From Candidatus Omnitrophota bacterium (GTDB lineage: Bacteria; Omnitrophota; Gorgyraeia; JABMRG01; JAFGKX01): a stretch of DNA of 61,421 nucleotides. The stretch spans positions 1-61,421 of the forward strand of contig JAZDPX010000049.1 of assembly GCA_043797125.1 (NCBI GenBank), read 5' to 3'. Below, one piece after another: positions 1,461 through 61,421 of the stretch. How positions within the stretch are numbered: the stretch's first letter is position 1; each line of letters starts with the position of its first letter. Position numbers and translations under genes: made by a program. The notes beneath the pieces are model-generated. The model made no database searches and had not been told where the DNA came from. It saw only the letters and a program-made list of their open reading frames with translations.

Positions 1461-4082
1461 ATGAGAACTCTACTCAAAATAATAATATGCATAAGTATTA
1501 TCTTATCGCCCCAGCAGGCGCAGGCGCTCCGGCCCATCTCCACTGCGATTTCATCTGCTCAGATCTTTGCAATACACAAAGCGCGTGAGTACGATCGTAA
1601 CCTGCTCAAAGGACACTTAATTGAATTGGAAGATAAATATCTACCAATCGCAAAGGAGATAGTAATTTTGGCTCGTGAAATTCATAAATTTGTTCATCAA
1701 ACGCCAGCCGACAAACAATATCTAATTTTAAGGGATTTACAGGAAGAAAGGGACATGCCAGAAATCATTGCAGAGGGTAAGCATCTATCGAATCTATATG
1801 CCTCAGCAATTAATTTTAATAAAAACAGAACGTCAGAACTTAATAAGAAGAAAGCCTCATTTCTTTTAGCCATGGAGTATATTAGGGATAAAAATGAATT
1901 ATACCCTGATCTGAGCAAGCAGTTTAACGAGTTCGCACAACAAGGAATTAACCTAATCAATGCCCATCTTAATACGGGGAAAGAGGATACCCAATCGTCA
2001 AATTACGATGATTTAGGTTCTGTTATTAAATTTACTTGCAAACTTTTTAATCTTGCAAAGAAAAAAGTTAACGACTTATCCCAAGGAAGAGATTTGGTGT
2101 TTAAAATTATCGACAAAGCAATGCGCTTAAAAACCCCTCTTTCGCCAGACAGACAGGATGAAATTAATAGCCTTAGAACCAATATATTAGGAAGTGAAAA
2201 TGGTAAGAGAGTTTTTCTCTCAGCGAGGTCTCTCATTCAATTTTACCAAGCAAGTTTATTTACAGCTAGTAGTAACTATAAAATGGCACACGTTGCCGAT
2301 GTGATTCTCTACTCTCTTTATAAAAAAACCTATGACAGAAATTTTGAAACCCTTATTAAAGACGTTAAGAAATACATAGGAGTTGATGCAGCAGAAGAAC
2401 CAAGCGCTGAAGATATAAGCTTTAGTGAATTCTGGAAAGCCCGCCAACGTTATCAGCAATGGGAAAGAAAGCATGCAGAGCAGGAAATGACTGCGGAAGA
2501 AAAAGAAAAAAAATTGGAGCAAGATTTACGGACAATAGAGCAAATGATAATGGGCCAGGGATTTACCCTTCACAAAGAAACCTATGACTATAGCAGCGAA
2601 ATTGGAGCTCCATATAAAAATTGGGAATTAGCACAAGGATTAGATATCGATTTTCCAAACAAGCAACCCGACAGGGGTATAAGCAATGCCCACTGCACTA
2701 TTAAAAGAAAACATTTTGCGATAAAAGGCCAGAAAGGAAAAAGATTCGTCATCGATTTGCATATAGCCAAATCGAGTTTTACATGGCTCGGCAAAGGATA
2801 TAGTGTGCTGGTTTCAATAGGAGAAGAGTCTGATAAATTTTGGGAACCAGCATGGAAGCAAGAGAGAGTATTCTCATTAAGAATTGGCGATGAGTTTATT
2901 TACGATAAAGAAAAAGATACATTTACCCTGGTAAAAGAGGGGCTGTTTACAACGATGGACAAAAATACGAATGTCAAAATAAAAAATACAAGACCAGATA
3001 ACCCTATAGGACACATCGATGAATATATGGGTATTCAGGATTATTCCGGGCCATATAAGATGGATAAGGGGCTTTACCTTATGCTTGAACAATATGCCCC
3101 CAACGCTGAAATTATTGTTTATGGTTGTAAAAACGACCCTTTTCAATTTGCACTTATTGTAGATATATATAACGACAGGCACTTAATTCTTAATCACAAG
3201 GGTGCTGTTATTTATTCATCTACGGAACAAGGGGCAATCAATATAGACACTTTTACATATTTCATAGGAGAGGGCCACTTTGACAATGAGCACCGTCTAC
3301 AGGGCCGATTTTTTGGTCTAAGGAAAGACGGTACCAAATTTGTACTTAATAGATATGGAATTATCGAAGATGAAAAAATTAAAAACCCTGTGGCTTTTAA
3401 ACAGGAATGGGATTCTATCCATACACAAGTTCTTGCAGAATGCTATAGGTATCTTGTCAAAATGTTTTCTGGAAAATCAGAATTTTTAAAAAGCGAAGAG
3501 GGTAAATTATATGAAAGCCTAAAGAAAGATTACGCCAATTTAGAAGAGGAGCGGCTAAGGGAGATTATTCTACGATGTTTTGCTGTCAGAAAGGAAATCT
3601 TAGAAGGCCAAAAATTGTTAGAGAAGGTCTTTTTTGGAAATAATAAATGTGACATTGGTAAATATCATTACCAAATAAAACCCCACATAAGCGAATGGTA
3701 TCAGCAATATGGGGAAGGCTATAAGGATGAACGTATTAGCGAGGGTAAGCTTGCGCTAAGTAGTGCGCTGGAAACTTTTCATGTGGTCTGTGACTACTGG
3801 GGCTCAGAAGATGATTTATATTTTACATTGTGTAGTTTTGAGTATTTTTTAACTGATTCGGGTGAATTAAAAATTGCCTGCACAGACAATCTTTATGACC
3901 CAGAGGCCATGAATAAACAATATGGCGGAATTGATGCGAATACATTAAAAGAGTTTTTAGCCAAATATAGATTGACGGGAACCTTAACAGTGCCCGTACC
4001 AAGACGCTTACCAAATCCTTCGGGAGACGTTTACCGCCTGCATCGGGAAAGTGTACCCTTTGCCTTTGATGCAAGCGCGTAA
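1461..4082 (+). CDS. Large secreted hypothetical protein (signal peptide + LRP motif, C-terminus AFDASA)
   Basis: 873-aa ORF starting MRTLLKIIICISIILSPQQAQA|LRP. No domain recognised. Confidence 0.75.
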   Translation: MRTLLKIIICISIILSPQQAQALRPISTAISSAQIFAIHKAREYDRNLLKGHLIELEDKYLPIAKEIVILAREIHKFVHQTPADKQYLILRDLQEERDMPEIIAEGKHLSNLYASAINFNKNRTSELNKKKASFLLAMEYIRDKNELYPDLSKQFNEFAQQGINLINAHLNTGKEDTQSSNYDDLGSVIKFTCKLFNLAKKKVNDLSQGRDLVFKIIDKAMRLKTPLSPDRQDEINSLRTNILGSENGKRVFLSARSLIQFYQASLFTASSNYKMAHVADVILYSLYKKTYDRNFETLIKDVKKYIGVDAAEEPSAEDISFSEFWKARQRYQQWERKHAEQEMTAEEKEKKLEQDLRTIEQMIMGQGFTLHKETYDYSSEIGAPYKNWELAQGLDIDFPNKQPDRGISNAHCTIKRKHFAIKGQKGKRFVIDLHIAKSSFTWLGKGYSVLVSIGEESDKFWEPAWKQERVFSLRIGDEFIYDKEKDTFTLVKEGLFTTMDKNTNVKIKNTRPDNPIGHIDEYMGIQDYSGPYKMDKGLYLMLEQYAPNAEIIVYGCKNDPFQFALIVDIYNDRHLILNHKGAVIYSSTEQGAINIDTFTYFIGEGHFDNEHRLQGRFFGLRKDGTKFVLNRYGIIEDEKIKNPVAFKQEWDSIHTQVLAECYRYLVKMFSGKSEFLKSEEGKLYESLKKDYANLEEERLREIILRCFAVRKEILEGQKLLEKVFFGNNKCDIGKYHYQIKPHISEWYQQYGEGYKDERISEGKLALSSALETFHVVCDYWGSEDDLYFTLCSFEYFLTDSGELKIACTDNLYDPEAMNKQYGGIDANTLKEFLAKYRLTGTLTVPVPRRLPNPSGDVYRLHRESVPFAFDASA

Positions 4083-4126
4083 ATTTAACCGCATAAGCAT
4101 ATAAAAAAGAGGCAAATTTATATTTT

Positions 4127-4260
4127 AATGACAAATGACAAAGCACAAAATTCAAAATATATCCAAATATCAAATACCAAATGACAAAACTTATGTTTTG
4201 CAATTTGTTATTTGTCATTTGACATTCATTTGGATTTTGAATTTTGACATTTGTCATTGA
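4127..4260. repeat. Inverted pair of degenerate heptamer tandem arrays (AAATGAC / GTCATTT)
   Basis: Left arm AATGACAAATGACAAA...AAATATCAAATACCAAATGACAAA. Right arm TTTGTTATTTGTCATTTGACATT...TTTGACATTTGTCATT. Confidence 0.8.
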
Positions 4261-4344
4261 CACTAACTACGTAACCCAACTACGAAACGGGCTACGTTAC
4301 CGTAACCGAACTACGCTTCCTTAAGAAGTTCTCGCTAAATTCCC

Positions 4345-4392
4345 TTGACAAAGCGGCCAGTTATGGTAATTTATTACCATAAACATGGTAAA
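4345..4392 (+). promoter_or_regulatory. Promoter and palindromic operator of the MNT-HEPN pair
   Basis: TTGACA at 4345. Inverted repeat TTATGGTAAT-TT-ATTACCATAA at 4361-4382 covers the -10 region. Extra half-site ATGGTAA at 4385. Confidence 0.65.
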
Positions 4393-4395
4393 AAT

Positions 4396-4941
4396 ATGAT
4401 ATCTTTACGCTCAAAGGTAGCGATAAAACTGCTGGATTATTATTTCATTAATCCGCGCGCCCAGCATTATATTAATGAGCTGGCTAGGATTTTGGAGCTT
4501 GATCCCAAAAACACCGAAAAAAAACTCAAAGAACTCGAGGGCGAAGGCCTCTTAAAAAGCGAGTTCCGCGGCAAAGAAAGATATTTTTTCCTCGCGAAGA
4601 ATAATCCTGTTTTAAAGCACTACCAGCAGATTTTTCTGAAAACGCACGGCATAGAGAATAGGCTTAAAAGTTTGATGGGCGGTATCAAAGGGCTTAAGCA
4701 GGCATATCTATTTGGTTCATACGCAAGCAATAATATGGATTCTTCAAGCGATATTGATTTACTGGTTGTAGGCTCGCATTCTGTTTTGGAATTGCAACGA
4801 GGCATTGTTAAGCTGCAGAAGGATACAGGAAGAGAATTTAATGTGACGAATTTAAGCCCAAAAGAATTTGAAGCAAGGAAAAAGAACAAAAACCACTTCA
4901 TAAGCAGCGTTCTTAATAGTAAGATTATCAGGCTTATATGA
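4396..4941 (+). CDS. Winged-helix + minimal nucleotidyltransferase (MNT) antitoxin
   Basis: N-terminal HTH (YINELARIL...). LFGSYA...SDIDLLVV Pol-beta motif. The track's TTG start at 4345 is the -35 box. Confidence 0.85.
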   Translation: MISLRSKVAIKLLDYYFINPRAQHYINELARILELDPKNTEKKLKELEGEGLLKSEFRGKERYFFLAKNNPVLKHYQQIFLKTHGIENRLKSLMGGIKGLKQAYLFGSYASNNMDSSSDIDLLVVGSHSVLELQRGIVKLQKDTGREFNVTNLSPKEFEARKKNKNHFISSVLNSKIIRLI

Positions 4942-5339
4942 TAAATTTTGAAAACCAATATTTTCAGAAACTAGTTTTTAAAAATGAGCAGATTGAGCAA
5001 TTTTTAAAGTCCGCTTTGCATGACCTAAAAATAGCGGAAGAATCCGATATTGTAGATGTTGTTTTCAAGTTCAGTTATGATGCCATTATAAAATTAGGTA
5101 TTATGCTAATTGCCAAAAAAGGATACAAGGTTAGAAGTGTAACAGGCCACCATATTAAAATACTTGAGAAACTAAGCCAGACACTCGAAGAAGACGATAT
5201 TCTTGTGCTTGGCAATAAGATGAGGCAGGAGCGTAATGTTAATTTTTATGACGGCGGATTTTTTATCGGAGAAAAAGACAGCCAGGAATATTTGGATTTT
5301 GTAAAGAGAGTTTTTAAAAAAGCTAATTCGTTGATTTAA
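4938..5339 (+). CDS. HEPN-domain toxin-like protein
   Basis: ATGA overlap with MNT. Helical 133 aa with GHH and RQERNVNFY (R-x4-Y variant). Confidence 0.72.
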   Translation: MINFENQYFQKLVFKNEQIEQFLKSALHDLKIAEESDIVDVVFKFSYDAIIKLGIMLIAKKGYKVRSVTGHHIKILEKLSQTLEEDDILVLGNKMRQERNVNFYDGGFFIGEKDSQEYLDFVKRVFKKANSLI

Positions 5340-5341
5340 TT

Positions 5342-7111
5342 ATGAAGAGAACGCTGCGTAACATAATTTTACTAACTGCATTGTTGGCTATTGCATATGC
5401 CTGCATCAAAGCCGAAGGCCCTATCAAGCGCAAAATATACGCGAGTAAAAATGGGCGCAAAATTTACAAAAATATTGAAGAAATGGAATCGCGCGTTGAC
5501 AAATTTTTTAAAGGCATAGGCAAAGGCATAAAGCCGGGCAAGGCCAAGGCAAAAAAGCAATCCTCAGCCGAAAGAGTCGCATTATATTTTAAAGACGGAA
5601 GCACCATGATAGGCCAGATACTGGAAACTACAGACGATAAATACATCGTTGACTGGAAGGGCATGGAAACGGTTGTTTATAAGGACCAGATAGAGCGCGT
5701 GGGCAGCGCCTACGAGGCATTGGATAAAAAGGGCGCGCTTTCCGACGAGGACATTTCAAATTGGTGGCCGTATCAGAATGATATTGCCATAAGGCTTAAA
5801 AACGGGATGGTCCTTGACGCAGAGATAATAGGTGTTGAAAAAGAAAGGATTGTTATACGCCACAACATAGAGGGCGGGCATATCGAACAGGACCTCGCGC
5901 GCGGCGATATAGAGTATCTGATTTTTAAACCTGTTGATAATGATGAAAGCAAAAGCGCCCAGGCAAGGCTTGAAAGGTCGTTCGGGAAGATGCAGCTTTA
6001 TAAGGAAGGCAATTTCACCATTGTAACGGATTCATATATAACATGGGTCAATGAATGCAAGAAGACGTTAAGGAGCGTGTACACAGAGCTGTATTTTAAA
6101 TTTTTCGATCTTCTTAAAACCAGAAAGCCCAAGATGCAGATTTTTGTTGTGATATTCGACAGCTATCCTGATTTTGTCGAATACGCCGTATCAGACGGTG
6201 TGCCGGGCTGGGCAGTTGCCGGGTATTTCAGCCCGGAAGACAAGGTGCTTTATATGTTTAATATACTGGGCGAGAGGTTTTCTGGAATTTTGCTTGAGGC
6301 AATAGCCGGTCAGACAGGAAGAAAAATCGACGATATAGTAGATAAGGTAAAAGCGCAGGTTGATGAAAGATATCATATATTTATCGAAGGCCAGGCAAAA
6401 CAGATAAATGACAAATACTGGGAGGTTTATAATTATTACAAGGACAGCTTCAGGGAAGCTACGCTGTCCACGTTAAGGCATGAATTTACGCATTCAATAT
6501 TTCATAACTGGGGGCTCCAAAGCATAGAGCTTTCAAAATACGAGAAAGACAAGGAAGAGCTTATAAAAAGAAAAAAAGACTACATTGATACAGATGACAG
6601 CAAGAAAAAGACAAAACTTATAGACAGGTTAATATCAATGAGAGGCGATGACGAGTCCCTTGATGTAAAGGCGGCAAATTCGTGGCTGGCAGAAGGCATT
6701 GCCACCTACAGTGAAACAGACCCTATCGGCAGCCAGAACGACAGATGGCTATTTATATATCAGGAAATGGCGAGAAAAAATACAGTATACCCGCTTGAAT
6801 TTTTGACGGTTTATAAAATCGGAAGTTTTCCCGGGGTCTATTCAAGCGCCATGCTTGATTTGTACGCGCAAAGCTGGGCATTAGTAAATTTCCTTATGGA
6901 AAAATATCCGAAAGAATTTATTGCATACCAGGAAAGGATGTCTGCGCAAGTCGCCGCAGGTCAGGAAGATGTGAAGTGGCTCTCGGAAGCAATCGGTAAG
7001 GACATACGCGCGATAGAAAGCGAATTTACGGAATATATGAAAAGTTTCGAAGAATTAGAAGACCCCTTATTAAAACACATCGGTAGGCTCCAGGATATCT
7101 TTAAGGGTTAA
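5342..7111 (+). CDS. Exported gluzincin-type metallopeptidase-like protein (DUF1570-like)
   Basis: N-terminal signal/anchor, HEFTH, WLAEGIATY, YAQSWALV. Confidence 0.7.
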   Translation: MKRTLRNIILLTALLAIAYACIKAEGPIKRKIYASKNGRKIYKNIEEMESRVDKFFKGIGKGIKPGKAKAKKQSSAERVALYFKDGSTMIGQILETTDDKYIVDWKGMETVVYKDQIERVGSAYEALDKKGALSDEDISNWWPYQNDIAIRLKNGMVLDAEIIGVEKERIVIRHNIEGGHIEQDLARGDIEYLIFKPVDNDESKSAQARLERSFGKMQLYKEGNFTIVTDSYITWVNECKKTLRSVYTELYFKFFDLLKTRKPKMQIFVVIFDSYPDFVEYAVSDGVPGWAVAGYFSPEDKVLYMFNILGERFSGILLEAIAGQTGRKIDDIVDKVKAQVDERYHIFIEGQAKQINDKYWEVYNYYKDSFREATLSTLRHEFTHSIFHNWGLQSIELSKYEKDKEELIKRKKDYIDTDDSKKKTKLIDRLISMRGDDESLDVKAANSWLAEGIATYSETDPIGSQNDRWLFIYQEMARKNTVYPLEFLTVYKIGSFPGVYSSAMLDLYAQSWALVNFLMEKYPKEFIAYQERMSAQVAAGQEDVKWLSEAIGKDIRAIESEFTEYMKSFEELEDPLLKHIGRLQDIFKG

Positions 7112-7127
7112 ACCATGCGGAGTAAAC

Positions 7128-7490: not shown

Positions 7491-7499
7491 GGAGCGAGA

Positions 7500-7758: not shown

Positions 7759-8220
7759 ATGAAAAAAACTATTTTTTTAATTATTCTAATATCTATTTTT
7801 ACAGCCGCAGGATGCGCTGATACAGGATCAAGGCGTTCTTCGGATACTACGGCGTCTTCTACGTTGGAAGTAGCTACTGCGTTAAAGTTTGATGATGTGC
7901 CGGTGCCGAGCGGATTTAAATTAGTTGCCGATGATTCATTTATTTTTGATAATGATGTGATGCGCCTAGGGATCCTTAAATACAGCGGCAGGCCGGATGC
8001 TTCGGTCGTGGTGAAATTTTACAAGGACCAGATGCCTCTTTATAATTGGCGGTTTATCAACCTCATGGAGTTTAACACGCGAATTATCAATTTTGACCGA
8101 GATGACCAGACCTGCACAATAATTGTTGAACCTCGTCAGTTAAGCACGCAGGTCACAGTAAGCGTTGCGCCGAAGGCCGGCAGGGCGGCGACGTATAAGG
8201 TTGATAAAAGCAGTCGATAG
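7759..8220 (+). CDS. Lipoprotein of unknown function
   Basis: Lipobox AAGC, AGGAGG RBS. Confidence 0.75.
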   Translation: MKKTIFLIILISIFTAAGCADTGSRRSSDTTASSTLEVATALKFDDVPVPSGFKLVADDSFIFDNDVMRLGILKYSGRPDASVVVKFYKDQMPLYNWRFINLMEFNTRIINFDRDDQTCTIIVEPRQLSTQVTVSVAPKAGRAATYKVDKSSR

Positions 8221-8250
8221 TCGATAGTCGATGGTCTATGGCCGATGGCA
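8213..8250 (+). repeat. Heptamer tandem repeat (ATAGTCG/ATGGTCT)
   Basis: GTCGATAGTCGATAGTCGATGGTCTATGGCCGATGGC. Same unit family as 59669-59705. Confidence 0.7.
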
Positions 8251-9906: not shown

Positions 9907-9918
9907 GCATAGTATCAA

Positions 9919-11859: not shown

Positions 11860-12939
11860 ATGAGAAACGTATTTATTTTTACTGTAATTATAAGCTTTAT
11901 CTTTACTTGCGCTCTCCTAGCGCAGGAACCAAATGGCGATCCTACCAAAGACGCTGCAGTTAAAGACTACAACGCCGAGGGAGAAGCGTTATTTAAGGCT
12001 GGTAATACGGGTGGCGCTATTATCGCGTTTCAAAAGGCGCTCGAAGCCAATCCAAACGATGAAAAAGCCTATGAAAATTTGGGAACACTGTATTTATCGA
12101 CATCGAATTATGACGATGCTATAAACACCTTTAACAAGTTAATAGAAATTGCGCCAAATTCCGTTACAGCCTATCGCAAACTTGTTTTAATATACAGTAT
12201 GAGAGGTAAGTACAGCGAACTAATATCAACAGCAGAACAGGCAATTAAACTGGACCCCAATAACATGGGCATCATTAGCCATTTAGCCAATGCTTACATT
12301 AAGCAGCAGGAATATGATAAGGCAGTTACGTATTTAAATAAATTAATTGAACAAAATGTGGGCCATCCCAGGATTTACAGTCTTTTGGCAGAGGCCTATT
12401 GCGGATTGTCAGACGAAAAAAAGGCAAGAGAGGTATTTGAAAAAAGCTATTACATGACAAGAGAAACCACAGCCTTTGAGAATGCCCCGGAGAAAGTCCG
12501 CGATGTAAATTCGCTTTTTGATGAAATGAGGGCCGGGGTGCTGGCTAAAAGAGCAAGCAAATGCATTGCAGACGGTAAGCAGGATGAAGGATTGGAATAT
12601 TATAAAAAGGCATTTGAGCTTAATCCAAAAAGTTTTGATGTATGTTACGCGCTTGCCGCCATATACGAAGTAAAAGAGGAACCAGAAAAGGTAAACTTTT
12701 ATCTTAAAAAAGCAGTTGAATTAAATCCTGAATCACTGCAGCTGATTATGGATTCCCCGTATTTTATTTCTTTTAAGGACAGCAAGGAACTTAAAGAGTT
12801 GACGCAAAAGGCAAAGAAGCAAGAAGAGCAGAAGAAAGGCGAGCAGGCACAACAACAGCAGCCGCAACAACAAGCAAACGAGCAGGCACAACAACAGCCA
12901 GAGCAGCAAAAAGAAAAGCAGAACGACAGCATAGAGTGA
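11860..12939 (+). CDS. Secreted tetratricopeptide-repeat protein with Gln-rich tail
   Basis: Signal peptide, multiple TPR repeats, Q/E-rich C-terminus. Confidence 0.85.
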   Translation: MRNVFIFTVIISFIFTCALLAQEPNGDPTKDAAVKDYNAEGEALFKAGNTGGAIIAFQKALEANPNDEKAYENLGTLYLSTSNYDDAINTFNKLIEIAPNSVTAYRKLVLIYSMRGKYSELISTAEQAIKLDPNNMGIISHLANAYIKQQEYDKAVTYLNKLIEQNVGHPRIYSLLAEAYCGLSDEKKAREVFEKSYYMTRETTAFENAPEKVRDVNSLFDEMRAGVLAKRASKCIADGKQDEGLEYYKKAFELNPKSFDVCYALAAIYEVKEEPEKVNFYLKKAVELNPESLQLIMDSPYFISFKDSKELKELTQKAKKQEEQKKGEQAQQQQPQQQANEQAQQQPEQQKEKQNDSIE

Positions 12940-33497: not shown

Positions 33498-33536
33498 AAA
33501 ACGTGTAAAGTGAAAAGTGTAAAGTTGGAGGAAAAT

Positions 33537-34103
33537 ATGAAAACTTGGATGATTGTATTAATTGTAATAGCTGTTATAATACTTATAGCGGGCGGATGGT
33601 TTATTAACGGCTTGAACACGGTTGTTGCTTTGCATGAAAATGTCTCAACTTTGTGGGCGCAGGTGGAAAACCAACTCCAAAGAAGAAACGACCTTGTGCC
33701 TAATTTGGTGAGCACGGTAAAAGGATACGCCGCGCATGAACAAGGGCTGTTTACCGAGGTAACCAGGCTTAGAAGCCAATGGAGCAACGCGCAGACCACC
33801 CAAGATAAAATAAGCGCTGCCGAAGGCCTTGGTTCTGCTATATCGAGGCTGCTTTTAGTTGTAGAAAATTACCCCGAGCTAAAGGCTAATCAGATTTTTT
33901 TAAGTTTACAGGCTCAACTAGAAGGCACGGAAAATAGAATTGTAGTTGAAAGAAACAGGTATAATGAGTCGGTAAGGCAGTTTAATACCTATATCAGGAC
34001 TGTTTTTGGCAGTTTTTTTGCCTCGGTAAGGGGGCTGAAAGAGCCTGCCGCATATTTTCAGGCAGACGCGGCAGCTAAGGCTGTTCCAAAGGTTGAATTT
34101 TAA
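33537..34103 (+). CDS. lemA: LemA family protein
   Basis: WAQVENQLQRR.DLVPNLV..VKGYA.HE, ENYPELKA, LEGTENRI. Confidence 0.93.
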   Translation: MKTWMIVLIVIAVIILIAGGWFINGLNTVVALHENVSTLWAQVENQLQRRNDLVPNLVSTVKGYAAHEQGLFTEVTRLRSQWSNAQTTQDKISAAEGLGSAISRLLLVVENYPELKANQIFLSLQAQLEGTENRIVVERNRYNESVRQFNTYIRTVFGSFFASVRGLKEPAAYFQADAAAKAVPKVEF

Positions 34104-41356: not shown

Positions 41357-42006
41357 GTGAGTCTTTGAAAAAAAAGAAAGCGCAGGCAATATTCAAATCC
41401 TTAAAAAAGATATATCCTAGCACCAAGATTGCGCTTGAGTTTAGAGACCCGCTGCAAATTCTAGTCGCAACTATTCTTTCCGCGCAATGCACCGACAAAA
41501 GAGTTAATATAGTAACTAAAGAGCTGTTTAAAAAATATAAAACAGCCAAAGACTATGCCGAGGCTGACCTTAAAACATTCCAAGAGCAGATTTGTTCTAC
41601 AGGCTTTTATAGAAATAAGGCCAAAAATATTATAAATGCTGCCAAGAAAATCGTAGCTGAATATGGCGCAAAAGTACCTTCCGCAATGGAAGAATTAATC
41701 AAGCTGCCAGGGGTCGCAAGAAAAACAGCGAACATAGTATTGTATAACGGGTTTGGCAGGATAGAAGGCATTGCCGTTGATACGCATGTTCGCAGGTTAA
41801 GTCAAAGGCTAAAACTATCAAAGCATGATGACCCCGTAAAGATTGAGCAGGATTTAATGAAGCTTTTTGATGAAAGCCAATGGGGAGAAATTTCCAACCT
41901 TCTAATAAGCCACGGAAGAAATATCTGCATTGCAAGAAATCCGAAATGCTGCGTCTGCGTTATCGAGAAGTTATGCCCTTCTAGCACACTCCGTTCTTCA
42001 GCGTAG
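41353..42006 (+). CDS. nth: Endonuclease III
   Basis: LSAQCTD, LPGVARKTAN, VDTHV, C-terminal Fe-S cysteines. Confidence 0.95.
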   Translation: MSESLKKKKAQAIFKSLKKIYPSTKIALEFRDPLQILVATILSAQCTDKRVNIVTKELFKKYKTAKDYAEADLKTFQEQICSTGFYRNKAKNIINAAKKIVAEYGAKVPSAMEELIKLPGVARKTANIVLYNGFGRIEGIAVDTHVRRLSQRLKLSKHDDPVKIEQDLMKLFDESQWGEISNLLISHGRNICIARNPKCCVCVIEKLCPSSTLRSSA

Positions 42007-42039
42007 GAGCCGTCTCCTAACGGCGAACAAAAAATCCAC

Positions 42040-42292
42040 ATAAGCCTTTGGGCATTGCCTCAAAAACACGCTTGAAGATTTGGGCAAAACTATAGTCGTT
42101 CGGCCGGGGCCCCTCCGAATTCACCTGAAAATAGTAGGGCAGGCTTTAGCCTGCCCTACTATTCAAGGGTTCATTCGGTGTCCCCAGTCTGCCTGCCTGA
42201 CGGTAGGCAGGCACTCCTATGTTTTGCCTACAACCAAAACGAGCGAGCCAAATCTTCCGCTATTGTTTTTTCGGCAATGCCCAAAGGCTTAT
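42040..42292. mobile_element. MITE-like rod-shaped element, copy B (carries a 20-bp CCTGCC insertion at 42192-42211)
   Basis: Terminal inverted repeats ATAAGCCTTTGGGCATTGCC / GGCAATGCCCAAAGGCTTAT. Homologous to 18320-18546. Confidence 0.78.
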
Positions 42293-42432
42293 ACTCATTT
42301 TTAGCCACCTTGCCATCCCCGCGAAACTTGTCCCCGTGAAAACGGGGAGCGGGGATCCGTTTTTTCCCTGTTTTTTCCCTTGAAAGTTCCGATATTTATG
42401 ATATACTATACATCAAACGAAGATGAAAAGGG

Positions 42433-42520
42433 CCCCGAAGGGAGAACTTCTCTGAAGTTTCTTCCTTCGGGGTTATCATTTTAGGCTTAATTAAGGCATT
42501 TAATTAAAGGTGATAGAAAG
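42433..42520 (+). promoter_or_regulatory. Leader of the LRP-motif gene: hairpin plus conserved 48-nt block
   Basis: Hairpin at 42433-42472. 42473-42520 matches 59621-59668 at 38/48 positions without gaps. Confidence 0.65.
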
Positions 42521-42523
42521 TTT

Positions 42524-43750
42524 ATGAGAAAAATTTTAGTAATTATTCTAATGCAATTTATCGTTATTAACAGCATAACAACACCCCTTGGGGCTGTAAC
42601 CGTAGATGCTTTGCGCCCCCTTTCAAGTGAACTATCTAAAAATGATTTTAAGGAGAATGAGCTTACTGCAAAAGTTATAAGCGAAGAAGTTTTGCCGGCA
42701 GTTAGAAAGATGGCCAAGGCAGCTGGGGAAATAATGTTAAGTTATAAAGGAAAATTGGATTCTCTTAGAAAAGAGATGAAATCTGATAAAACAATAGTGA
42801 CAGAAGTTGATACCAAAATTCAGGAAATGGTCATTCAAGAAATACGCTCATTATTTCCAACGCATTATATCGTTGGGGAAGAAGAAATGTCAGGCATCAA
42901 GCTGGATAAAAGTTCGCGATATACATGGACAATAGATCCCCTGGACGGAACCAAAGAATTTGTTAAAGACGGGAGTCATTATGGTTTCTCAATTTGTCTG
43001 ATGGACGAAGGTTCGCCAATCTTAAGTATTTTTTATGCGCCCGAATATCGTATAGACGGAGAACATGAATACTCTCTGTTTGAGGCTTGCGAAGGCATTG
43101 AAGGCGCTTATTTAAACGGAAAAAAAATTACCATTTCTAAATCAACAGACTTTAAAAACAAGAAGTGTTTAGTTGTAGGTAGCGCTGCTTACGGTATCTT
43201 AGGGTTTGAGCATAAGCTGAGAAGTTTATTTGGAGGGGGAGATTCTGACTGCCGCTCTACAACTTTGGAAATTTGCAGAGTCGCTTGCGGTGGCACATAT
43301 GGCGAGCCTATATTTTTTGCAAAAGCGATAATTTGTGATATGCACGATGTAATGCCTGGCATATACATAGCAGAAAAAGCAAAAGCTATAAATGTGGATT
43401 TTAAAGGAAGCAATCTTTTACCGGTAGATAAAACAAGATTAAGAGGGGAGAGCCCAAGATTTCATACTGTAATGGTAGGAAGCGAAGAAACAATAAAACA
43501 TGTTTTACCGGCATCAAGTGAATTATATGTACCTGACATGCATGATGCTTTGAGAAAAGATCCGACAATTAAGTTTCTTAAAGAATATACGGGCCTAGAA
43601 AATTTATTAGATAATCCAGTATTACATAAGGAATATTTGAAATGGCTTGGAAATGGAAAGATTACAGGACCACAAAAGAAAGCAATAGAGAATTCCTATC
43701 AGTCAAGGTTCAATTTGCAACTCTTAAATGCAATAGGAGCTGCTGCCTAA
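42524..43750 (+). CDS. Signal peptide + LRP motif protein carrying an inositol monophosphatase/CysQ-family domain
   Basis: MRKILVIILMQFIVINSITTPLGAVTVDA|LRP. IVTEVD, IVGEE, WTIDPLDGTKEF. C-terminus AIGAAA. Confidence 0.82.
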   Translation: MRKILVIILMQFIVINSITTPLGAVTVDALRPLSSELSKNDFKENELTAKVISEEVLPAVRKMAKAAGEIMLSYKGKLDSLRKEMKSDKTIVTEVDTKIQEMVIQEIRSLFPTHYIVGEEEMSGIKLDKSSRYTWTIDPLDGTKEFVKDGSHYGFSICLMDEGSPILSIFYAPEYRIDGEHEYSLFEACEGIEGAYLNGKKITISKSTDFKNKKCLVVGSAAYGILGFEHKLRSLFGGGDSDCRSTTLEICRVACGGTYGEPIFFAKAIICDMHDVMPGIYIAEKAKAINVDFKGSNLLPVDKTRLRGESPRFHTVMVGSEETIKHVLPASSELYVPDMHDALRKDPTIKFLKEYTGLENLLDNPVLHKEYLKWLGNGKITGPQKKAIENSYQSRFNLQLLNAIGAAA

Positions 43751-55276: not shown

Positions 55277-55286
55277 TGCGCATAAC

Positions 55287-56084
55287 ATGTTTAAAATCCT
55301 TATATATATAATAATAATTGTAGTTATCCTTACAACGTATATCCGTTATATTGAAGGCCGCAGCATATTCTTTCCTATGAAAAGGATGGAATTTACGCCT
55401 GATTTTGCTAATCTGCCTTACGAAGACGTATATATAACCACACAGGATAATGTCAAAATAAACGGCTGGTTTATACCTGGGGATAATGCCAAATATACGC
55501 TTTTATTCTGCCATGGCAATGCTGGAAATATCAGCCACAGGCTTGAGAAAATAATTATCCTTCGCGATATCGGCGTTAACATATTCATTATTGATTACAG
55601 AGGCTATGGCAACAGCGAAGGCAGCCCTTCGGAAAAAGGCCTGTATATTGATGCAAGGGCAGCATACGATTATCTGGTTAATACCAGAAAAAATGCCCCA
55701 GAAAACATTATTATTTACGGAGAATCTTTAGGCGGAGCGGTTGCTGTAGACCTTGCCTCAAAGGTAAAGGCAGGAGCATTAATAGCAGAAGGAACTTTCA
55801 GCAGCGCAAGGGATATGGCAAAAAAGATGTACCCGTTTTTACCTGCGCTTGTTTTCTCAAGCAGGTTGGATTCAGTATCAAAGATTAAAAAGGTAGGCGC
55901 GCCTAAGCTTTTTATTCACAGTAAAAACGATGAAATAGTCCCATTTATCCTTGCCATTAAGCTTTATAATGCGGCAGGAGAGCCCAAAGACATGATAGAG
56001 CTTTTTGGCGGCCACAATACCTACCACATAGACTCGAAAAACAAATATATTTCTTCAATAGCAAAGTTTTTAAGCAGGCTTTAG
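55287..56084 (+). CDS. Alpha/beta hydrolase (ABHD13/Bem46-like)
   Basis: N-terminal TM, HGNAGN, DYRGYG, GESLG, D..V, GGHN. Confidence 0.9.
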   Translation: MFKILIYIIIIVVILTTYIRYIEGRSIFFPMKRMEFTPDFANLPYEDVYITTQDNVKINGWFIPGDNAKYTLLFCHGNAGNISHRLEKIIILRDIGVNIFIIDYRGYGNSEGSPSEKGLYIDARAAYDYLVNTRKNAPENIIIYGESLGGAVAVDLASKVKAGALIAEGTFSSARDMAKKMYPFLPALVFSSRLDSVSKIKKVGAPKLFIHSKNDEIVPFILAIKLYNAAGEPKDMIELFGGHNTYHIDSKNKYISSIAKFLSRL

Positions 56085-57370
56085 GGAGAAATCCACTTCT
56101 CTTTTGGCGGGTTAAAATATCCGAATTTGATTTTGGAGAAGCGTTTTTTAATTTCTTTCATCAAATTCTTTATACCTATCATATTTTCCGGTCTTAGGGC
56201 CACCTTCATAAGTCTTGCGTAAGCAGCAGGGTCATAATTCAGATTTCGCCACTGTATCATATCAATACGGTTGTCTTTAAGAAATTTAAGTAGGGTTTTT
56301 ACTTCTGCGATTTCATCCGTAAATCCAGGGGCAGTGAAATAGTTTATCGAAACAAATCCCCCAGCTGCTTTTGTGTATTCTATAGACCTTATAACATCCT
56401 CAAATTTATAGCCTATGGGCTTAAAATAGGCATTGTAATATTTTTCCTGTACGCTATTTAGGCTTACGCGTATGCTGTCCAAACCTGCCGCAAAAAGCTG
56501 TTTTACGATTTTAGGCTTGCTGGCGTTGGTATTCAGGTTTATTGTGCCTTTTTTTGTATCTTTTCTTATTAATTTGATTGCTTCAAGCAGCACATCGCTA
56601 ACCATAAGCGGTTCCCCTTCGCAACCTTGCCCGAAACTTACCACAGGGTTTCTTACGTCATTAATATGAAACAGGGCTACTTGAGATATTTCTTCAGCCG
56701 TTGGGGTAAAGGTGATTCTTGGTTGTGTTATAGAGCAGTTTTTATCAGGCTGAAAAGATAAACATCCTGCGCATCTTGCGTTGCATTTCGGAGAAGTTGG
56801 CAGTGGACATTCGTATCTTTGTAAAAAGAAATTTTTCCCTGCAGGGCAGTTATAAACAAGGGCGCATTTTGTAAGGTGCTTAAACAATCTGTTGCCGGCA
56901 AATATTTTTTCAAATTTCTTTACATTTTGTTTTATCTTTTTAATGCTCATTAGCCTTAAATCCTGCCTTTTTTCCCTATCAACCCTTACTGCAGGCACAT
57001 AGAAATCCCCATCATAAAAAGCTACAGGCGCATAAGAAAAAAGAGGCAGCATTTTGGCATTTTTTTCCTGGACATATGCTGTTGAGTATGTGGCTGTGTA
57101 TCCCGGTGATACAAAAGCAGCTACTGCAAAGCATTTTTCTCTTAACTTTGAATAAGGATTTGTCTTTAGGGTTGTAAGCTGGCCTGTTTTTGAATCATAG
57201 CCAACAGGGTATCTTTCAGGCAGCACAAAAAGCTCGCTTCCAAAGGGCAATTTTATCAAATCTTTCCTTGAAAGAGGAAATAGTATCCCTGCCTTTGATG
57301 CCGCAGGTTGTAGGCCGGGCACATCAAGGATATTATGGTTTTTATCAGCTATTATTAAGGCTGGCTTCAT
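56081..57370 (-). CDS. Radical SAM protein
   Basis: PTSPKCNARCAGC, SFGQGCEGEP, NLNTN. Confidence 0.88.
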   Translation of the reverse strand: MKPALIIADKNHNILDVPGLQPAASKAGILFPLSRKDLIKLPFGSELFVLPERYPVGYDSKTGQLTTLKTNPYSKLREKCFAVAAFVSPGYTATYSTAYVQEKNAKMLPLFSYAPVAFYDGDFYVPAVRVDREKRQDLRLMSIKKIKQNVKKFEKIFAGNRLFKHLTKCALVYNCPAGKNFFLQRYECPLPTSPKCNARCAGCLSFQPDKNCSITQPRITFTPTAEEISQVALFHINDVRNPVVSFGQGCEGEPLMVSDVLLEAIKLIRKDTKKGTINLNTNASKPKIVKQLFAAGLDSIRVSLNSVQEKYYNAYFKPIGYKFEDVIRSIEYTKAAGGFVSINYFTAPGFTDEIAEVKTLLKFLKDNRIDMIQWRNLNYDPAAYARLMKVALRPENMIGIKNLMKEIKKRFSKIKFGYFNPPKEKWISP

Positions 57371-57441
57371 ATTATTCGCTTATTATAGGCTCTATAAGGG
57401 GCGTTCGCAAGGCGAAAATCGCATATTTGCCCGGATTTTGA

Positions 57442-57503
57442 TTGACAAATAATAGGACATATTATATAATAAATTTATAAAATAAATAGGACATATGTCC
57501 TAT
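57442..57503 (+). promoter_or_regulatory. Consensus sigma-70 promoter and palindromic operator of the HTH-Fic gene
   Basis: TTGACA(57442)-17 nt-TATAAT(57465). AATAGGACATAT lies in the spacer and recurs in the perfect palindrome ATAGGACATATGTCCTAT (57486-57503). Confidence 0.75.
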
Positions 57504-58427
57504 AAATCAAATATGAATAAACTAAAAAAAGGTATATTTTCGGATAAAGAGAAATTAGGCCAGCTTATCGCGTGCGCGGGATTTACCTCGACAAAAATAG
57601 CTAACGCAATTGGGGTAACTTACAAGACTGTGTACCGCTGGCTGCATAAAAAGGTGAAACCACACCATGGACAATCACAGCGCATCGATGAATTGTACAA
57701 AGAATACGTGGATATAACGCCAATGGTATATGCAACAAAGAAGGAATTCACCAGAGGCCCTTTAGAAATTCTGAAAAACAACCAAAAAATACGTAATAAA
57801 TTTTTTCTTGAAATGACTTATCATTCAAATGCCATTGCAGGAAGTAAAATGACCATAAAAGAGACCCAAAAGGCAATAAAGGGCGAGAAGGTAAGAGGTA
57901 AGAGTCTGTTTGAGCAGCTTGAGGCTATTAATCACAACAATGCCTTAGGTTTTATGCTCGAATGCCTAAAGCCGGGTTTTAAAATAACAGAAGATTATAT
58001 ATTAAAATTGCATAGCATTGTTATGTATAATTTTAATGATAAGTTACCAGGCAAATACAGGACTGGGCCTGTTAACCTGGTAAACGCAGAAAAGCCTCTG
58101 CCAAGTGTCAAAGAAGTGCCGCCAAAGATGAAGAAGCTAATAAGCACCATAAACAGCCCCAAGCCGGAAATAATCAAAAAGGCCGCAACGGTTCATTATA
58201 ATTTTGAGACTATTCATCCGTTTTTTGATGGAAACGGCAGGGTTGGCAGGCTTATTATGATAACCCAGCTTTTAAGCAGGGGATTTGGCCCTGCGATTAT
58301 AAAGATTGAAGACAGGTATAAATATTTCACTGCTTTGGGAAAGGGTGATATGGGAGATTTTCAGAATTTGGTTCAGCTTACATGCGAAGCTGTACTAAAC
58401 GGGTATGAAATGATGGCTACAGCATAG
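57495..58427 (+). CDS. HTH + Fic-domain protein
   Basis: IANAIGVTYKTVYRW HTH and HPFFDGNGRVGR Fic motif. Alternative start at 57513. Confidence 0.9.
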   Translation: MSYKSNMNKLKKGIFSDKEKLGQLIACAGFTSTKIANAIGVTYKTVYRWLHKKVKPHHGQSQRIDELYKEYVDITPMVYATKKEFTRGPLEILKNNQKIRNKFFLEMTYHSNAIAGSKMTIKETQKAIKGEKVRGKSLFEQLEAINHNNALGFMLECLKPGFKITEDYILKLHSIVMYNFNDKLPGKYRTGPVNLVNAEKPLPSVKEVPPKMKKLISTINSPKPEIIKKAATVHYNFETIHPFFDGNGRVGRLIMITQLLSRGFGPAIIKIEDRYKYFTALGKGDMGDFQNLVQLTCEAVLNGYEMMATA

Positions 58428-58497
58428 TAGCGCAGGCTTAAGCCTGCGCTACTATGCTTTCAGTAGGCAAACCGGGGCAGGCTTAAGCCTGCCCTAC
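58421..58497. repeat. Two GTAG-type REP-like palindromes
   Basis: Perfect 38-bp palindrome at 58421-58458 and GGGCAGGCTTAAGCCTGCCC at 58475-58494. Confidence 0.88.
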
Positions 58498-58509
58498 CAT
58501 CGTGGATAA

Positions 58510-59475
58510 TTAAATATTATTAATTAAATTCACAAGCTCCTTATAAGATCTCGTAGCGCATATAGCAGAGCGCACCTTGCCTGCATCCGGAACGCCCTTT
58601 AAATACCACATGGCTATTTTAAGCATAAGCCCAACCCTGCCCATGGTTTTGCTTCCTTTGTGTGTTTCCAATAACTTCAGGTGTTTTTTCAGCACTTTTT
58701 TTTTGGCAGAAATAGTCGGCTCAGGCAAAATTTTTCCATTTTTTAAATAGGCATCAATCCCTTTGAATATCCAAGGATAGCCAAGTGCGCCCCTTGCAAC
58801 TAAAATACCATCACATCCTGTTTCATCAAACATCTTTTTAGCCAGTTGCGGATTAAGTACATTGCCGCTTCCAAAAACAGGTATTTTTAAGGCGGTTTTT
58901 ATTTCCCTTATAGACTCATAATCAACCTCGCCTGCATAGCCTTGCGCCCTGGTCCTTCCATGCACAAAAACAGCCGAAGCGCCGCTTTCCTGGCAGGTTT
59001 TGGCTAAAATTAGGGCTTCCGGAAGGCTTTTTTTGCCATATCCTATCCTAATTTTAACTGTAACCGGAACAGGCAGGAAAGAGGAGAGTCTCAGTAAGAT
59101 CCTTCCTAATTTTTTAGGCTCTTGCAGCAAATATGCGCCTGCGCCTTTGGATGTAACCTTTTTTGCAGGGCAGGCGCTGTTGATATCCAAAAAAGTAACA
59201 TCAACAAGGCCTAGTAGTTTTTGAGCAGCATCAGATAACATTTCAGGATCAGAGCCTAATAATTGCGCGGCTATTGGCGAGTCAGTTTTGTCGGTTTTTA
59301 GCATGTACAAAGTTCTGGGATGCTGATATAAAAGCGCCTTTGCTTCAACCATTTCAAAAAAACAGAATTTAGCGCCATGCTCGCGCGCTATAAGCCTGAA
59401 TGAGTAATCCGTGCACCCTGACATCGGCGCCAGGAATATGTTGGTCTTTATAGTACTTGAGCCGATTTTTATCAT
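58510..59475 (-). CDS. dusB: tRNA-dihydrouridine synthase B
   Basis: LAPMSG.TD..FR, QL.GS, DINSACP, VTVKIR.G, VHGRT, G.DG..VARG. Confidence 0.9.
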   Translation of the reverse strand: MIKIGSSTIKTNIFLAPMSGCTDYSFRLIAREHGAKFCFFEMVEAKALLYQHPRTLYMLKTDKTDSPIAAQLLGSDPEMLSDAAQKLLGLVDVTFLDINSACPAKKVTSKGAGAYLLQEPKKLGRILLRLSSFLPVPVTVKIRIGYGKKSLPEALILAKTCQESGASAVFVHGRTRAQGYAGEVDYESIREIKTALKIPVFGSGNVLNPQLAKKMFDETGCDGILVARGALGYPWIFKGIDAYLKNGKILPEPTISAKKKVLKKHLKLLETHKGSKTMGRVGLMLKIAMWYLKGVPDAGKVRSAICATRSYKELVNLINNI

Positions 59476-59583
59476 GGGCTACATTATATACTTGCCTGGC
59501 ATTATATGTCAATGTACTAATTTTTCTTGTAAATCCAATAATTCTATGGTATTATATTAAAAATTGAATTATACGAAAAGAGC

Positions 59584-59705
59584 GACCTCATGTTTGCGTA
59601 CCAAACGCATGCGTGAGGTCTTATAGTTTTAGGCTAAATTAACACTTTTAATTAATGGGGTTATAAAGATAGTCAATAGTCTATAGTCAATGGTCTATGG
59701 TCAAT
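59584..59705 (+). promoter_or_regulatory. Leader of the third LRP-motif gene: hairpin, conserved 48-nt block, heptamer tract
   Basis: Hairpin GACCTCA..TGAGGTC at 59584-59620. Conserved block at 59621-59668. ATAGTCA/ATGGTCT repeats at 59669-59705. Confidence 0.65.
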
Positions 59706-59714
59706 AAAAAATAT

Positions 59715-61421
59715 ATGAGAAAAATAATAGCAATAACGATAACGATTGTTCTGACAATGACACAGCAGGGGCTATGTCTTAGGCCGCCATCTTTTTTGGA
59801 TTCAGATAAAATTATAAAAGAATTAGATAGCAGTAATAGAATTTCTATTAGGTCTATTCTTAAGCAATTCGCTTATAATCCACCCATAACCATGCCGGAT
59901 TCAATGAAGAAAGATTATTATAGTCCTGAAATTGCAAGGTTGTTGGTATTGATTTTGTTTAATGTCCTGGAAAAATATACTTACCAGTTGCCATTAGATA
60001 TATTTGGAAAACCAAAGGTATTGAAGCAAATAAAATCTATACTTGATGAAAGTGTTATTCCGTTGATACCTAAATCTAAATATGGGTTAGATGATCCGAT
60101 TGTTTCGTTTGTAGATATATTGCAGGGAAAAGGTAAGGTATTAATAGGCGATAGGGCGCTTACTTTACCAGAAATTTCAGGATCCTATGACCTAAATGCA
60201 TATGAAAGAAATGCCATAATAAATTCCATTGATTTTACAACAGTTATAATGGCGCATAATATATTCAGGCTGGAAAATATTATTGACGCAGCAGACGTGT
60301 GCGGGGCGCTGACATTTGAGGCCTTGCAAGGTAAAGCAGTTGAACTGGATATGGCCTTGCACGATAAAGCTAGGCCCCATGCAGGGCAGGTTATAACAGC
60401 TTCAAATATGCGTATTTTGACAAAAGGCAGTACCCTGGTGCAAAATCCGGAGGATATCAGCAATATTGTTCAGGATGCTTATTCTTTAAGGGGAATACCC
60501 CAGATTCACGGCGCTACAAGAGATGCCATTATTTACGCGACAAATTTATTGGACGAGGCCCTTAATTCGCCTCCACGAAAAATATTAAGCAAAAAAGCAA
60601 TAAGCCAGGCGCTATCAGCGGACTTACTCCGCGTTGCCGTAAGTGAACTAGCAGATGTGTCGGAGAGGCGTATTAACCGCTTGATTAATCCCGTATTAAA
60701 TTCTGGATTAACATCTTTTTTGATAGATAAGAAAGCGGCTCTAGCCGGCCTTAACTCAAGCTTTATGATCCCTCAGTATGCAGCTGCTTCGATTGTCAAT
60801 ATGCTTAAAACCCTTGCTCATCCAACAGGTTTATTAACGCAACCCGCAGAATGTTTGAGTTGTCAGCAACTAAGCGATTCCATAGATCTTGTCGGGGATG
60901 TTTTAGCAATAGAGCTAATGAATGCAGCGCAGGCCGTGGATCTTAGGCTGGATATAATTAAGGCAGGTTTGGGGCAAGGAAGCAAAAAAGCTTATGATCT
61001 GGTAAGAAGCGAAGTTAAGCATTTAGAAGAAGACAGGATACTGCATGATGATGTATTAAAAATAAAAAATCAAATTGAAAACGGAGAATATAGCGAAGTA
61101 TTAAGAATCTTACAAAAACGGGAGCAAGAGACCACGCCTTATCCTTATAGAACGCAGTTACAAAGTAGCAGTGCGCCTCGCCAAATTGTTTCATTAAATG
61201 GCTCTGCAGTTTTATTAGAGGACATAAGGGATGTGGCGGAAAGAAATGCTTCTGTATCAATACCAAAAGAAGCTTACGTTAAAATTAACGAATCGCGCAG
61301 AGTTGTCGAAAAGATTATCGAAGCAAAGAAAGCCGTATACGGAATAACAACCGGGTTTGGTCCTTACGCTAATATATTTGTCTCGCCAGGAGCCGCGGAA
61401 CAATTGCAGGTAAATCTTATT
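59715..61421 (+). CDS. Signal peptide + LRP motif protein with tandem histidine ammonia-lyase-like domains; 3'-truncated by the window edge, not in the ORF track
   Basis: Manually translated open frame of 569 codons: MRKIIAITITIVLTMTQQGLC|LRP...RPHAGQ...VQDAYSLR..PQIHGA...SERRI.RL.NP...MIPQY.AAS...DR...then a new HAL N-terminus VYGITTGFG at 61335. Confidence 0.85.
   Translation, partial: MRKIIAITITIVLTMTQQGLCLRPPSFLDSDKIIKELDSSNRISIRSILKQFAYNPPITMPDSMKKDYYSPEIARLLVLILFNVLEKYTYQLPLDIFGKPKVLKQIKSILDESVIPLIPKSKYGLDDPIVSFVDILQGKGKVLIGDRALTLPEISGSYDLNAYERNAIINSIDFTTVIMAHNIFRLENIIDAADVCGALTFEALQGKAVELDMALHDKARPHAGQVITASNMRILTKGSTLVQNPEDISNIVQDAYSLRGIPQIHGATRDAIIYATNLLDEALNSPPRKILSKKAISQALSADLLRVAVSELADVSERRINRLINPVLNSGLTSFLIDKKAALAGLNSSFMIPQYAAASIVNMLKTLAHPTGLLTQPAECLSCQQLSDSIDLVGDVLAIELMNAAQAVDLRLDIIKAGLGQGSKKAYDLVRSEVKHLEEDRILHDDVLKIKNQIENGEYSEVLRILQKREQETTPYPYRTQLQSSSAPRQIVSLNGSAVLLEDIRDVAERNASVSIPKEAYVKINESRRVVEKIIEAKKAVYGITTGFGPYANIFVSPGAAEQLQVNLI

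Follow-up and report, generated by a model that had tools for sequence, protein, structure and literature searches.

A paired N- and C-terminal signature on cytoplasm-type proteins of an Omnitrophota clade

Why would proteins with cytoplasm-type middles begin with what looks like an export signal, and could their two ends form a single address? The question is raised by a 61,421-nucleotide contig of a Candidatus Omnitrophota bacterium (JAZDPX010000049.1, here contig C49; hereafter referred to as the window), in which three genes each open with a signal-peptide-like segment followed by Leu-Arg-Pro (LRP), and the two complete ones close with a short, alanine-rich C terminus. An initial annotation of the window had proposed that these ends serve a dedicated export route with swappable enzyme cargos. 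Here we show that the LRP motif and the C-terminal motif are paired on a diverse, partly co-regulated set of proteins restricted to Omnitrophota, a widespread, uncultured and ultra-small group whose members are believed to rely on other cells or to prey on them.

The window is part of a metagenome-assembled genome of 2.06 Mb in 54 contigs (94.75% complete), whose assembly contains no 16S rRNA. The suspected relationship with the Planctomycetota–Verrucomicrobiota–Chlamydiota (PVC) group is borne out: GcvPB of the window is closest (64–65% identity) to Candidatus Omnitrophica/Omnitrophota genomes, followed by other PVC phyla, and several relatives with tagged proteins carry the NCBI name 'Candidatus Omnitrophota bacterium'. 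Translation recovered the three open reading frames (ORFs) with the LRP motifs and C-terminal ends ascribed to them:

1461–4082, + strand: family member 1, 873 residues, no Pfam family
1461–1526, + strand: member 1, signal-peptide-like residues 1–22
1527–1535, + strand: member 1, LRP
4062–4079, + strand: member 1, AFDASA
4080–4082, + strand: member 1, stop codon
42524–43750, + strand: family member 2, 408 residues, IMPase/CysQ-like domain (residues 54–302) and a C-terminal extension of ~100 residues
42524–42610, + strand: member 2, signal-like residues 1–29
42611–42619, + strand: member 2, LRP
43730–43747, + strand: member 2, AIGAAA
59715–>61421, + strand: family member 3, HAL-like, gene cut by the contig end, C terminus beyond the contig
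59715–59777, + strand: member 3, signal-like residues 1–21
59778–59786, + strand: member 3, LRP

With a slash before LRP, the translated sub-ranges read MRTLLKIIICISIILSPQQAQA/LRPISTAIS ... AFDASA-stop for member 1, ...GAVTVDA/LRPLSSELS ... AIGAAA-stop for member 2 and ...TQQGLC/LRPPSFLDS for the N terminus of member 3.

Coupled motifs at the two ends of unrelated proteins

A start codon followed by a basic residue, a hydrophobic stretch and LRP occurred in 42 ORFs when all open frames of the genome were considered, as compared with 1–9 for each of 13 control tripeptides; LRP after signal-like N termini is thus more frequent than chance. Among the 3,338 open frames of at least 100 residues, 32 combined the N motif with a C-terminal [ASC]A, 19 had the N motif only, 70 the C motif only and 3,217 neither (odds ratio 77, p 5e-38). 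When genes were called crudely and without overlap, 1,714 resulted, and a simple heuristic picked 287 signal-peptide-like proteins from them. The N motif [small]LR[PGAQNS]x[AST] was present in 43 of these, and the C motif [ILVFMA]xx[ASC]A terminated 34 of the 43, versus none of the other 244 signal-peptide-like proteins (Fisher p 3e-36). This enrichment test had been set beforehand, and it establishes the suspected coupling of the C-terminal motif to LRP. The complete two-motif members (n = 37) total 35,723 residues, or 5.5% of the crude proteome. Envelope proteins of the ordinary kind in the window, namely lipoproteins and barrel-like proteins ending in F, are without LRP.

The nine proteins with the N motif only comprise three cut by contig ends, about two apparently split into two ORFs, two with variant ends (..GKA and ..KWA) and two without a C motif. 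Adjacent ORF pairs, the first with the N motif and the second with the C motif, lie at C38:69358–70539 and 66535–69147, at C6:74954–76363 and 74534–74917, and at C19:17753–20931; these look as if a frameshift, a stop codon or an assembly error had split tagged genes.

The motif pair is kept in related genomes. A profile of 20 own N termini (E ≤0.01) matched every one of the 15 genomes searched in the same order and none of 15 drawn from the remaining families of the class. All 40 matches retrieved from relatives contain [small]LR(P/S), and the 3′ end is complete in 36 of them, of which 32 terminate in [AS]A, two in AV and two otherwise. When a broader profile was run against 200 sampled genomes of the phylum, strong matches were confined to the same order (4/4), and weak ones appeared elsewhere. 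Five genomes that belong to other families of the class supplied ten weak matches, each with a signal peptide and then ALR(P/S/Q); of the eight complete ones, four end in [AS]A, two in FA or MA, and two do not fit. The signature thus predates the order and has since diverged. A HMMER search of 1,835,955,588 cluster representatives with the N-terminal profile alone returned 146 proteins at E ≤0.001, including 129 from outside the own genome, 127 of them with the N motif and 87 with the C motif. The C motif was present in 83 of the 97 non-own proteins of at least 300 residues, and in 4 of the 32 shorter ones, which are mostly fragments. A longer N-terminal alignment used as the profile query gave 15 matches, and a word-indexed search with residues 1–40 of one member found only that member itself.

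Sequence logos were built from the 37 own and 40 relatives' proteins, with L, R and the last two residues as selection criteria and the remaining positions free. The N block reads P/A(−6), Q/D(−4), A/G/S(−3), Y/F/L(−2), A/C(−1), then L R P (M/I/A/V) (A/S) (T/S) x (N/L/V/I) S. The C block reads hydrophobic(−9), A(−6), I/F/L(−5), x, S/A/Q(−3), A/S/C(−2), A(−1), stop, the last residue being A in 69 of 69 selected sequences. Conservation is limited to positions −6 to +9 and the last 6–10 residues, with none outside. Terminal Ala-Ala-stop sequences use all synonymous codons, and no DNA element common to the members follows the stop codon, which argues that selection acts on the protein.

The N termini have the predicted anatomy of Sec signal peptides with a signal peptidase I site, consisting of a basic n-region, an Ile-rich hydrophobic core of ~12 residues, a frequent P-Q-Q and small amino acids at −3 and −1. 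Position −1 is A, C, S, T or G in 37/37 own and 40/40 relatives' proteins, and position −3 is A, S, G, T or C in 31/37 own proteins. The gap between the core and LRP is 5–9 residues in 20/37 own and 26/40 relatives' proteins, a spacing that fits signal peptidase I. In 14 of the 37 own proteins it is 15 residues or more, which makes the LRP block a motif in its own right. As a correction to the initial annotation, LRP therefore does not always occupy residues +1 to +3 of a signal peptidase I product. A twin-arginine (Tat) signal is not apparent, with RR in the n-region of a single member (1/37). Lipoproteins carry a lipobox, [LVI][ASTVI][GAS]C, at the cleavage site; none was found in the own members, five of which (5/37) have Cys at −1, after L, F or E and before LRP.

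A further motif, K-x-S-S-S-(A/S)-G, lies 10–45 residues after LRP in some relatives (loci L051, L053, L055, L061, L066, L072, L079, L082 and L083). We rejected it as part of the core signature, as it occurs in 10/40 relatives' and 0/37 own proteins. In other families of the class (L168–L175), this second motif takes the form ..S-A-G-x-E-E.

Between the two ends, the proteins carry unrelated, swappable, cytoplasm-type middles, a point on which the Pfam scans of own and library members confirm the initial annotation. In the window, member 2 matches Inositol_P (E 3.4e-33, residues 54–302) and member 3 matches Lyase_aromatic in two stretches (E 3.1e-75); the first of these fits the model from position 107 on, and a second, complete-looking domain begins near the contig end. 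Member 2 has no close homologue among 5.8 billion proteins, its next-best matches being CysQ-like, 32–39% identical and covering part of its length, and a related-locus search with it found no relatives. For the 873-residue orphan member 1, the ESM Atlas gave no usable feature match, and the structure matches of its poor model reached TM ≤0.26. Elsewhere in the genome, the metabolic cargos are PPDK/PEP-utilising domains, two PfkB kinases, an iPGM-like metalloenzyme and four HAD hydrolases. They stand beside two B12/radical-SAM enzymes, a GT5 synthase, an ARMT1-like phosphatase and a methyltransferase, and beside two protein kinases, two HATPase_c domains, a response-regulator receiver, sigma-70 regions 2/3, an SF1 helicase, a GNAT domain and two WD40 proteins. 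No Pfam family was found in 11 of the 36 own pieces scanned.

The library scan took in 63 of the 86 two-motif proteins, and 31 of the 63 had a Pfam family (E ≤1e-6). The families include QRPTase, many methyltransferases, PPDK, GNAT, repeated HTH_8, HMGL-like, HEAT, PRK, sugar transferases, GT1, ATP-grasp/CoA-ligase, radical SAM, HATPase_c, receiver domains, a protein kinase, RNHCP, HAD/TPR, arginase and three DnaJ domains in a single protein; glycoside-hydrolase, protease, lipase and nuclease families were absent from these 63. IMPase, PPDK and sigma-70 also have untagged paralogues in the genome, that of member 2 being a housekeeping copy, which marks the tagged copies as extra. No further membrane segment is present in 36 of the 37 members. 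Their median Cys content is 1.07 per 100 residues, as compared with 0.60 in other exported-type proteins (p 9e-5) and 1.33 in cytoplasmic ones (p 0.03).

The truncated ORF at C12:1–1188, which lacks its 5′ end and terminates in ..AKAAIMAA, contains a stretch that we take to resemble the C-terminal part of glyceraldehyde-3-phosphate dehydrogenase, possibly another glycolytic cargo. A tagged giant of 7,941 residues carries Cys/Met-PLP and proline-dehydrogenase domains (Pfam). Related C termini (..AIEAQA, ..EILAQA, ..IIASQA and ..AVSQNA) also occur on giant ORFs of 13,995, 6,510, 3,170 and 7,730 residues (C45:55676–97663, C9:2–19534, C47:14922–24434 and C16:2–23194), one of which has SYA/YNRP instead of LRP. 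The tag system may thus reach the giant proteins known from the phylum.

A shared leader RNA and the surroundings of the tagged genes

About ten members share a conserved region of ~150 nt upstream of the gene. Promoter-like hexamers come first and are followed by ATGAAAAGGG, by a GC-rich hairpin whose tail is U-rich, by the palindrome TTAATTAAGGCATTTAATTAA and by a strong Shine-Dalgarno sequence. Of the 10 genomic copies of the 24-nt core of this leader, 9 immediately precede LRP genes, and a covariance model likewise found 10 copies in the own genome, 10/10 upstream of LRP genes. One more copy, from a different genus within the same family, also sits directly upstream of an LRP gene, and the model found none in the remaining 29 genomes searched. 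The window copies are as follows:

42380–42385, + strand: TTGAAA, promoter-like hexamer upstream of the leader of member 2
42402–42407, + strand: TATACT, promoter-like hexamer upstream of the leader of member 2
42421–42517, + strand: leader of member 2 (covariance model 104.5 bits) with hairpin, U-rich tail, palindrome TTAATTAAGGCATTTAATTAA and Shine-Dalgarno sequence
59571–59665, + strand: leader of member 3 (covariance model 52.7 bits, E 9e-8), outside the training set

Folding of the window leader copy gave z = −5.26, and, in a seven-sequence alignment, pairing is kept through two-sided changes in 6 of 18 predicted pairs. Rfam returned only two chance-level matches for the leader (E 0.5–0.9, far below the gathering score; window 42000–42600). 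We regard the shared, structured leader as a candidate for a new cis-regulatory RNA. The promoter of other members is sigma-70-like and includes the CCTTTTATAA motif.

Several further elements lie close to tagged genes. Gene 1 is flanked by a 5′-truncated tyrosine recombinase (1–774) and by an MntA-like nucleotidyltransferase with a small partner ORF (4345–5339). MntA-like paralogues adjoin two further tagged genes, on contigs C6 and C19, a hint of island-like contexts. Beyond MntA/HepT-like pairs and short repeat-derived pseudo-ORFs, the family genes have no recurrent neighbours. Similar stretches with short pseudo-ORFs (MGKTIVVR...) at window 42080–42304 and at C26:37757–38074, each a few hundred bases 5′ of a tagged gene, probably represent a repeat or some non-coding element and not a protein. 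The heptamer RGTCNAT forms tandem arrays of 3–6 copies in intergenic spacers, often just before start codons. Two of them lie in the window, at 8212–8239 and 59671–59705, and the latter produces a false upstream start (59697) for the HAL-like gene of member 3. With 56 arrays spread genome-wide, we rejected them as a family-specific element.

Sorting, lifetime or anchoring

With moderate confidence, we read LRP and the C-terminal tag as a lineage-specific, two-ended sorting or processing code that an Omnitrophota clade would use for Sec-exported, effector-like proteins. The signal peptide, to judge from its anatomy, would carry the protein through SecYEG, and the LRP block and the free C-terminal hexapeptide would be short linear motifs that are read after translocation. 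Their reading could serve to sort, process or release the protein, with passage of the outer membrane as one example and a checkpoint by a protease that binds C termini as another. A function in the periplasm is implausible for cargos that depend on ATP, SAM, Fe-S clusters, DNA or Hsp70, which leaves onward delivery as the most economical reading; the cargos would most probably act in the cytoplasm of another cell, as effector-like proteins of a host-dependent bacterium.

The search for a reader covered the export, processing and neighbouring genes. No accessory SecA2/SecY2 or additional signal peptidase was found in the genome. Four secretin loci resemble type II secretion systems (T2SS) or type IV pili, and two tagged genes lie directly upstream of one T2SS-like operon (PilM-like/secretin/GspE/GspF, contig C6). 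Secretin counts per genome (2–7) do not separate tag carriers from non-carriers. One relative, G003, has only 32–35%-identical matches to an ExeA-type T2SS protein, yet encodes a protein with both tags; as at least one fully tagged protein is kept, we rejected this genome as a natural knock-out. The single S41 C-terminal-processing protease is of the periplasmic type with a PDZ domain, and the genome has three PDZ ORFs in all. A complex prediction for this protease with a 40-residue C-terminal tail scored 0.00 and carries no verdict either way. NCBIfam, run on 37 C-terminal 40-mers with E up to 1, gave one sub-threshold srtB_target match only (12.2 bits, cut-off 18.15), and on both termini it returned generic signal-peptide noise and no curated sorting-signal model. 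The C-terminal domain (CTD) of type IX secretion (T9SS), Por_Secre_tail, is absent from the Pfam matches of the 36 own pieces and 63 library proteins. Two further sub-threshold NCBIfam matches in the window, MamA (TPR) and MamQ (LemA-like) at 11860–12936 and 33510–34100, fall well below their cut-offs and probably reflect generic fold similarity.

Several observations weigh against a two-ended sorting code. Two to four complete N-motif proteins, counting the own genome and relatives, lack the C motif, and the Cys content of the members is nearer to that of cytoplasmic than of exported-type proteins. The gap of at least 15 residues in 14/37 members is too long for a signal peptidase I site, and the twin-arginine signal, which would suit cofactor enzymes, is rare. 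SecA, SecY, signal peptidase I and the S41 protease are each encoded once, no dedicated machinery was found, and the adjacency to the T2SS-like operon is not conserved, with no tagged gene there in the 11 relatives that have 6 kb of upstream sequence (two further regions, cut by contig ends, were left out of the comparison). Export and cleavage are themselves predicted from signal-peptide anatomy. In addition, radical-SAM/B12 enzymes, kinases and sigma factors exported by Sec cannot work in the periplasm, so the code needs a putative second step. Of the address tag with its own delivery route that the initial annotation proposed, the specific, conserved motif pair, the swappable cargos and the Sec-like N termini are thus retained, whereas no dedicated machinery could be linked to them.

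The alternative that survives best, although we consider it unlikely, is that the tags set protein lifetime instead of routing, by rapid or conditional proteolysis, for example of copies in the wrong compartment. N-terminal Leu-Arg is a bacterial N-degron type, so that cleavage before LRP would expose one, and small non-polar C termini suit Tsp-type proteases. The C-terminal small-small-Ala-Ala resembles both the ends preferred by Tsp/Prc/Ctp and the transfer-messenger RNA (tmRNA) tag, which in this organism ends ...PLAA, and the invariant A at −1, the A/S/C at −2 and the periplasm-type S41 protease are consistent with such control. Position −3 is S/A/Q, however, and not the Leu of the tmRNA tag, and the conserved A(−6) and I/F/L(−5) point to a more specific reader. 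A degron alone would also leave the tight coupling to one signal-peptide class unexplained. Lifetime control could equally be one step in the reading of a sorting code and not an alternative to it.

Ranking next, and likewise improbable in our judgement, is an uncleaved N-terminal segment that keeps the proteins within the cell, as an anchor or targeting signal for the inner membrane or an internal compartment, with LRP and the C-terminal hexapeptide as assembly or import motifs. The enzymes would then stay in an ATP-containing space, as befits a set in which every cargo is of cytoplasmic type and the Cys content is close to that of cytoplasmic proteins. In PVC relatives, signal peptides target proteins to the anammoxosome. 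Passages of an Omnitrophota preprint, moreover, read many long proteins with such domains as membrane-anchored with a cytoplasmic bulk (10.64898/2026.06.07.730766). By contrast, a core of only ~12 residues followed by a helix-breaking Pro and a site with small residues at −3 and −1 has the features of a cleaved signal, basic residues before the core predict that the bulk lies outside, and the tag is found on extra paralogues only and not on housekeeping copies.

That the tags are functionless, a 5′ cassette of leader and signal peptide having spread by duplication and recombination with the C-terminal likeness inherited or accidental, would account for the DNA-level similarity of this region among ~10 paralogues, but it is very unlikely given that the cargos are unrelated, that the motifs persist across the order, and that the C motif, with its diverse Ala codons and no conservation at the DNA level, recurs in 83/97 distant representatives found through the N end only.

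Comparison with known targeting systems

The two-ended tag, on 5.5% of the crude proteome and in at least 146 protein clusters world-wide, defines a coherent, searchable set of proteins. If a sorting code, it would be a new type of tag, combining a post-signal-peptide motif with a free C-terminal hexapeptide, and would explain the signal peptides on 'cytoplasmic' enzymes, giant proteins included. If the motifs are degrons or anchors, they still reveal an undescribed regulatory layer. The set opens the way to concrete experiments, such as reporter export, peptide pull-downs and terminomics. The tags match nothing in NCBIfam or Pfam, and the leader nothing in Rfam. The available passages of Omnitrophota papers and preprints, of an Antarctic-lake study and of full-text search results, with supplements outside their scope, do not mention the tags. 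Passages of preprints describe giant Omnitrophota proteins that carry signal peptides and comparable sets of 'cytoplasmic' domains, with T2SS-like loci nearby, and these data fit a two-ended tag without describing one.

Several known systems share one element with the signature. The T9SS CTD, LPXTG, PEP-CTERM, GlyGly-CTERM and MYXO-CTERM likewise combine a signal peptide with a C-terminal tag on unrelated exported proteins of one lineage. Their tags are domains of 20–90 residues (the T9SS CTD, Pfam Por_Secre_tail, is a β-sandwich of ~80 residues) or a motif with a membrane helix and a basic tail, whereas here 6–10 residues end at the carboxylate, match no NCBIfam or Pfam model and have no identified sortase-like partner. 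Readers of the tmRNA tag and the PDZ proteases Tsp/Prc/CtpA recognise a similarly small, non-polar ..A-A-COOH end, and the own tmRNA tag ends LAA; the present tag, by contrast, is encoded in the gene, conserved at −5, −6 and −9, and coupled to a particular N motif. In the Bacteroidota Q-rule, the lipoprotein export signal and CsgA N22, the first mature residues hold a clade-specific post-Sec signal, whereas LRP... marks only ~15% of the signal-peptide-like proteins and is paired with a C motif. The peroxisomal targeting signal PTS1 is also a short motif at the extreme C terminus, with a free carboxylate, on many metabolic enzymes, but it belongs to eukaryotes, where it works post-translationally and imports folded proteins without a signal peptide.

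Further parallels are the RxLR motif of oomycetes and the PEXEL and TEXEL host-targeting motifs of apicomplexans, in which a signal peptide is followed, at a short and variable distance, by a short conserved motif containing Leu and Arg, on a large and rapidly diversifying group of proteins whose C-terminal effector domains are unrelated. The tagged proteins, as predicted from sequence, share this pattern of a signal peptide and a nearby short motif on a diversified repertoire. Tentatively, and with clearly less confidence than we place in the sorting code itself, we suggest a bacterial counterpart in host-dependent Omnitrophota nanobacteria, in which a signal peptide, LRP and A-I-x-S-A-A-COOH would address ~5% of the coding capacity into host or prey cells. 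The cargo set, made up of kinases, radical-SAM and glycolytic-type enzymes, methyltransferases, sigma/HTH regulators, J-domain proteins and also giant proteins, would be switched on in part through the leader RNA. Were this true, the tags would allow the effector repertoire of an uncultured phylum to be read from sequence. The RxLR and PEXEL/TEXEL motifs operate in the eukaryotic secretory pathway, where an aspartic protease cleaves them, and they lack a partner motif at the C terminus, whereas the present signature belongs to a bacterium in which host delivery is hypothetical, LRP mostly abuts the predicted signal-peptidase site, and a second motif stands at the free C terminus.

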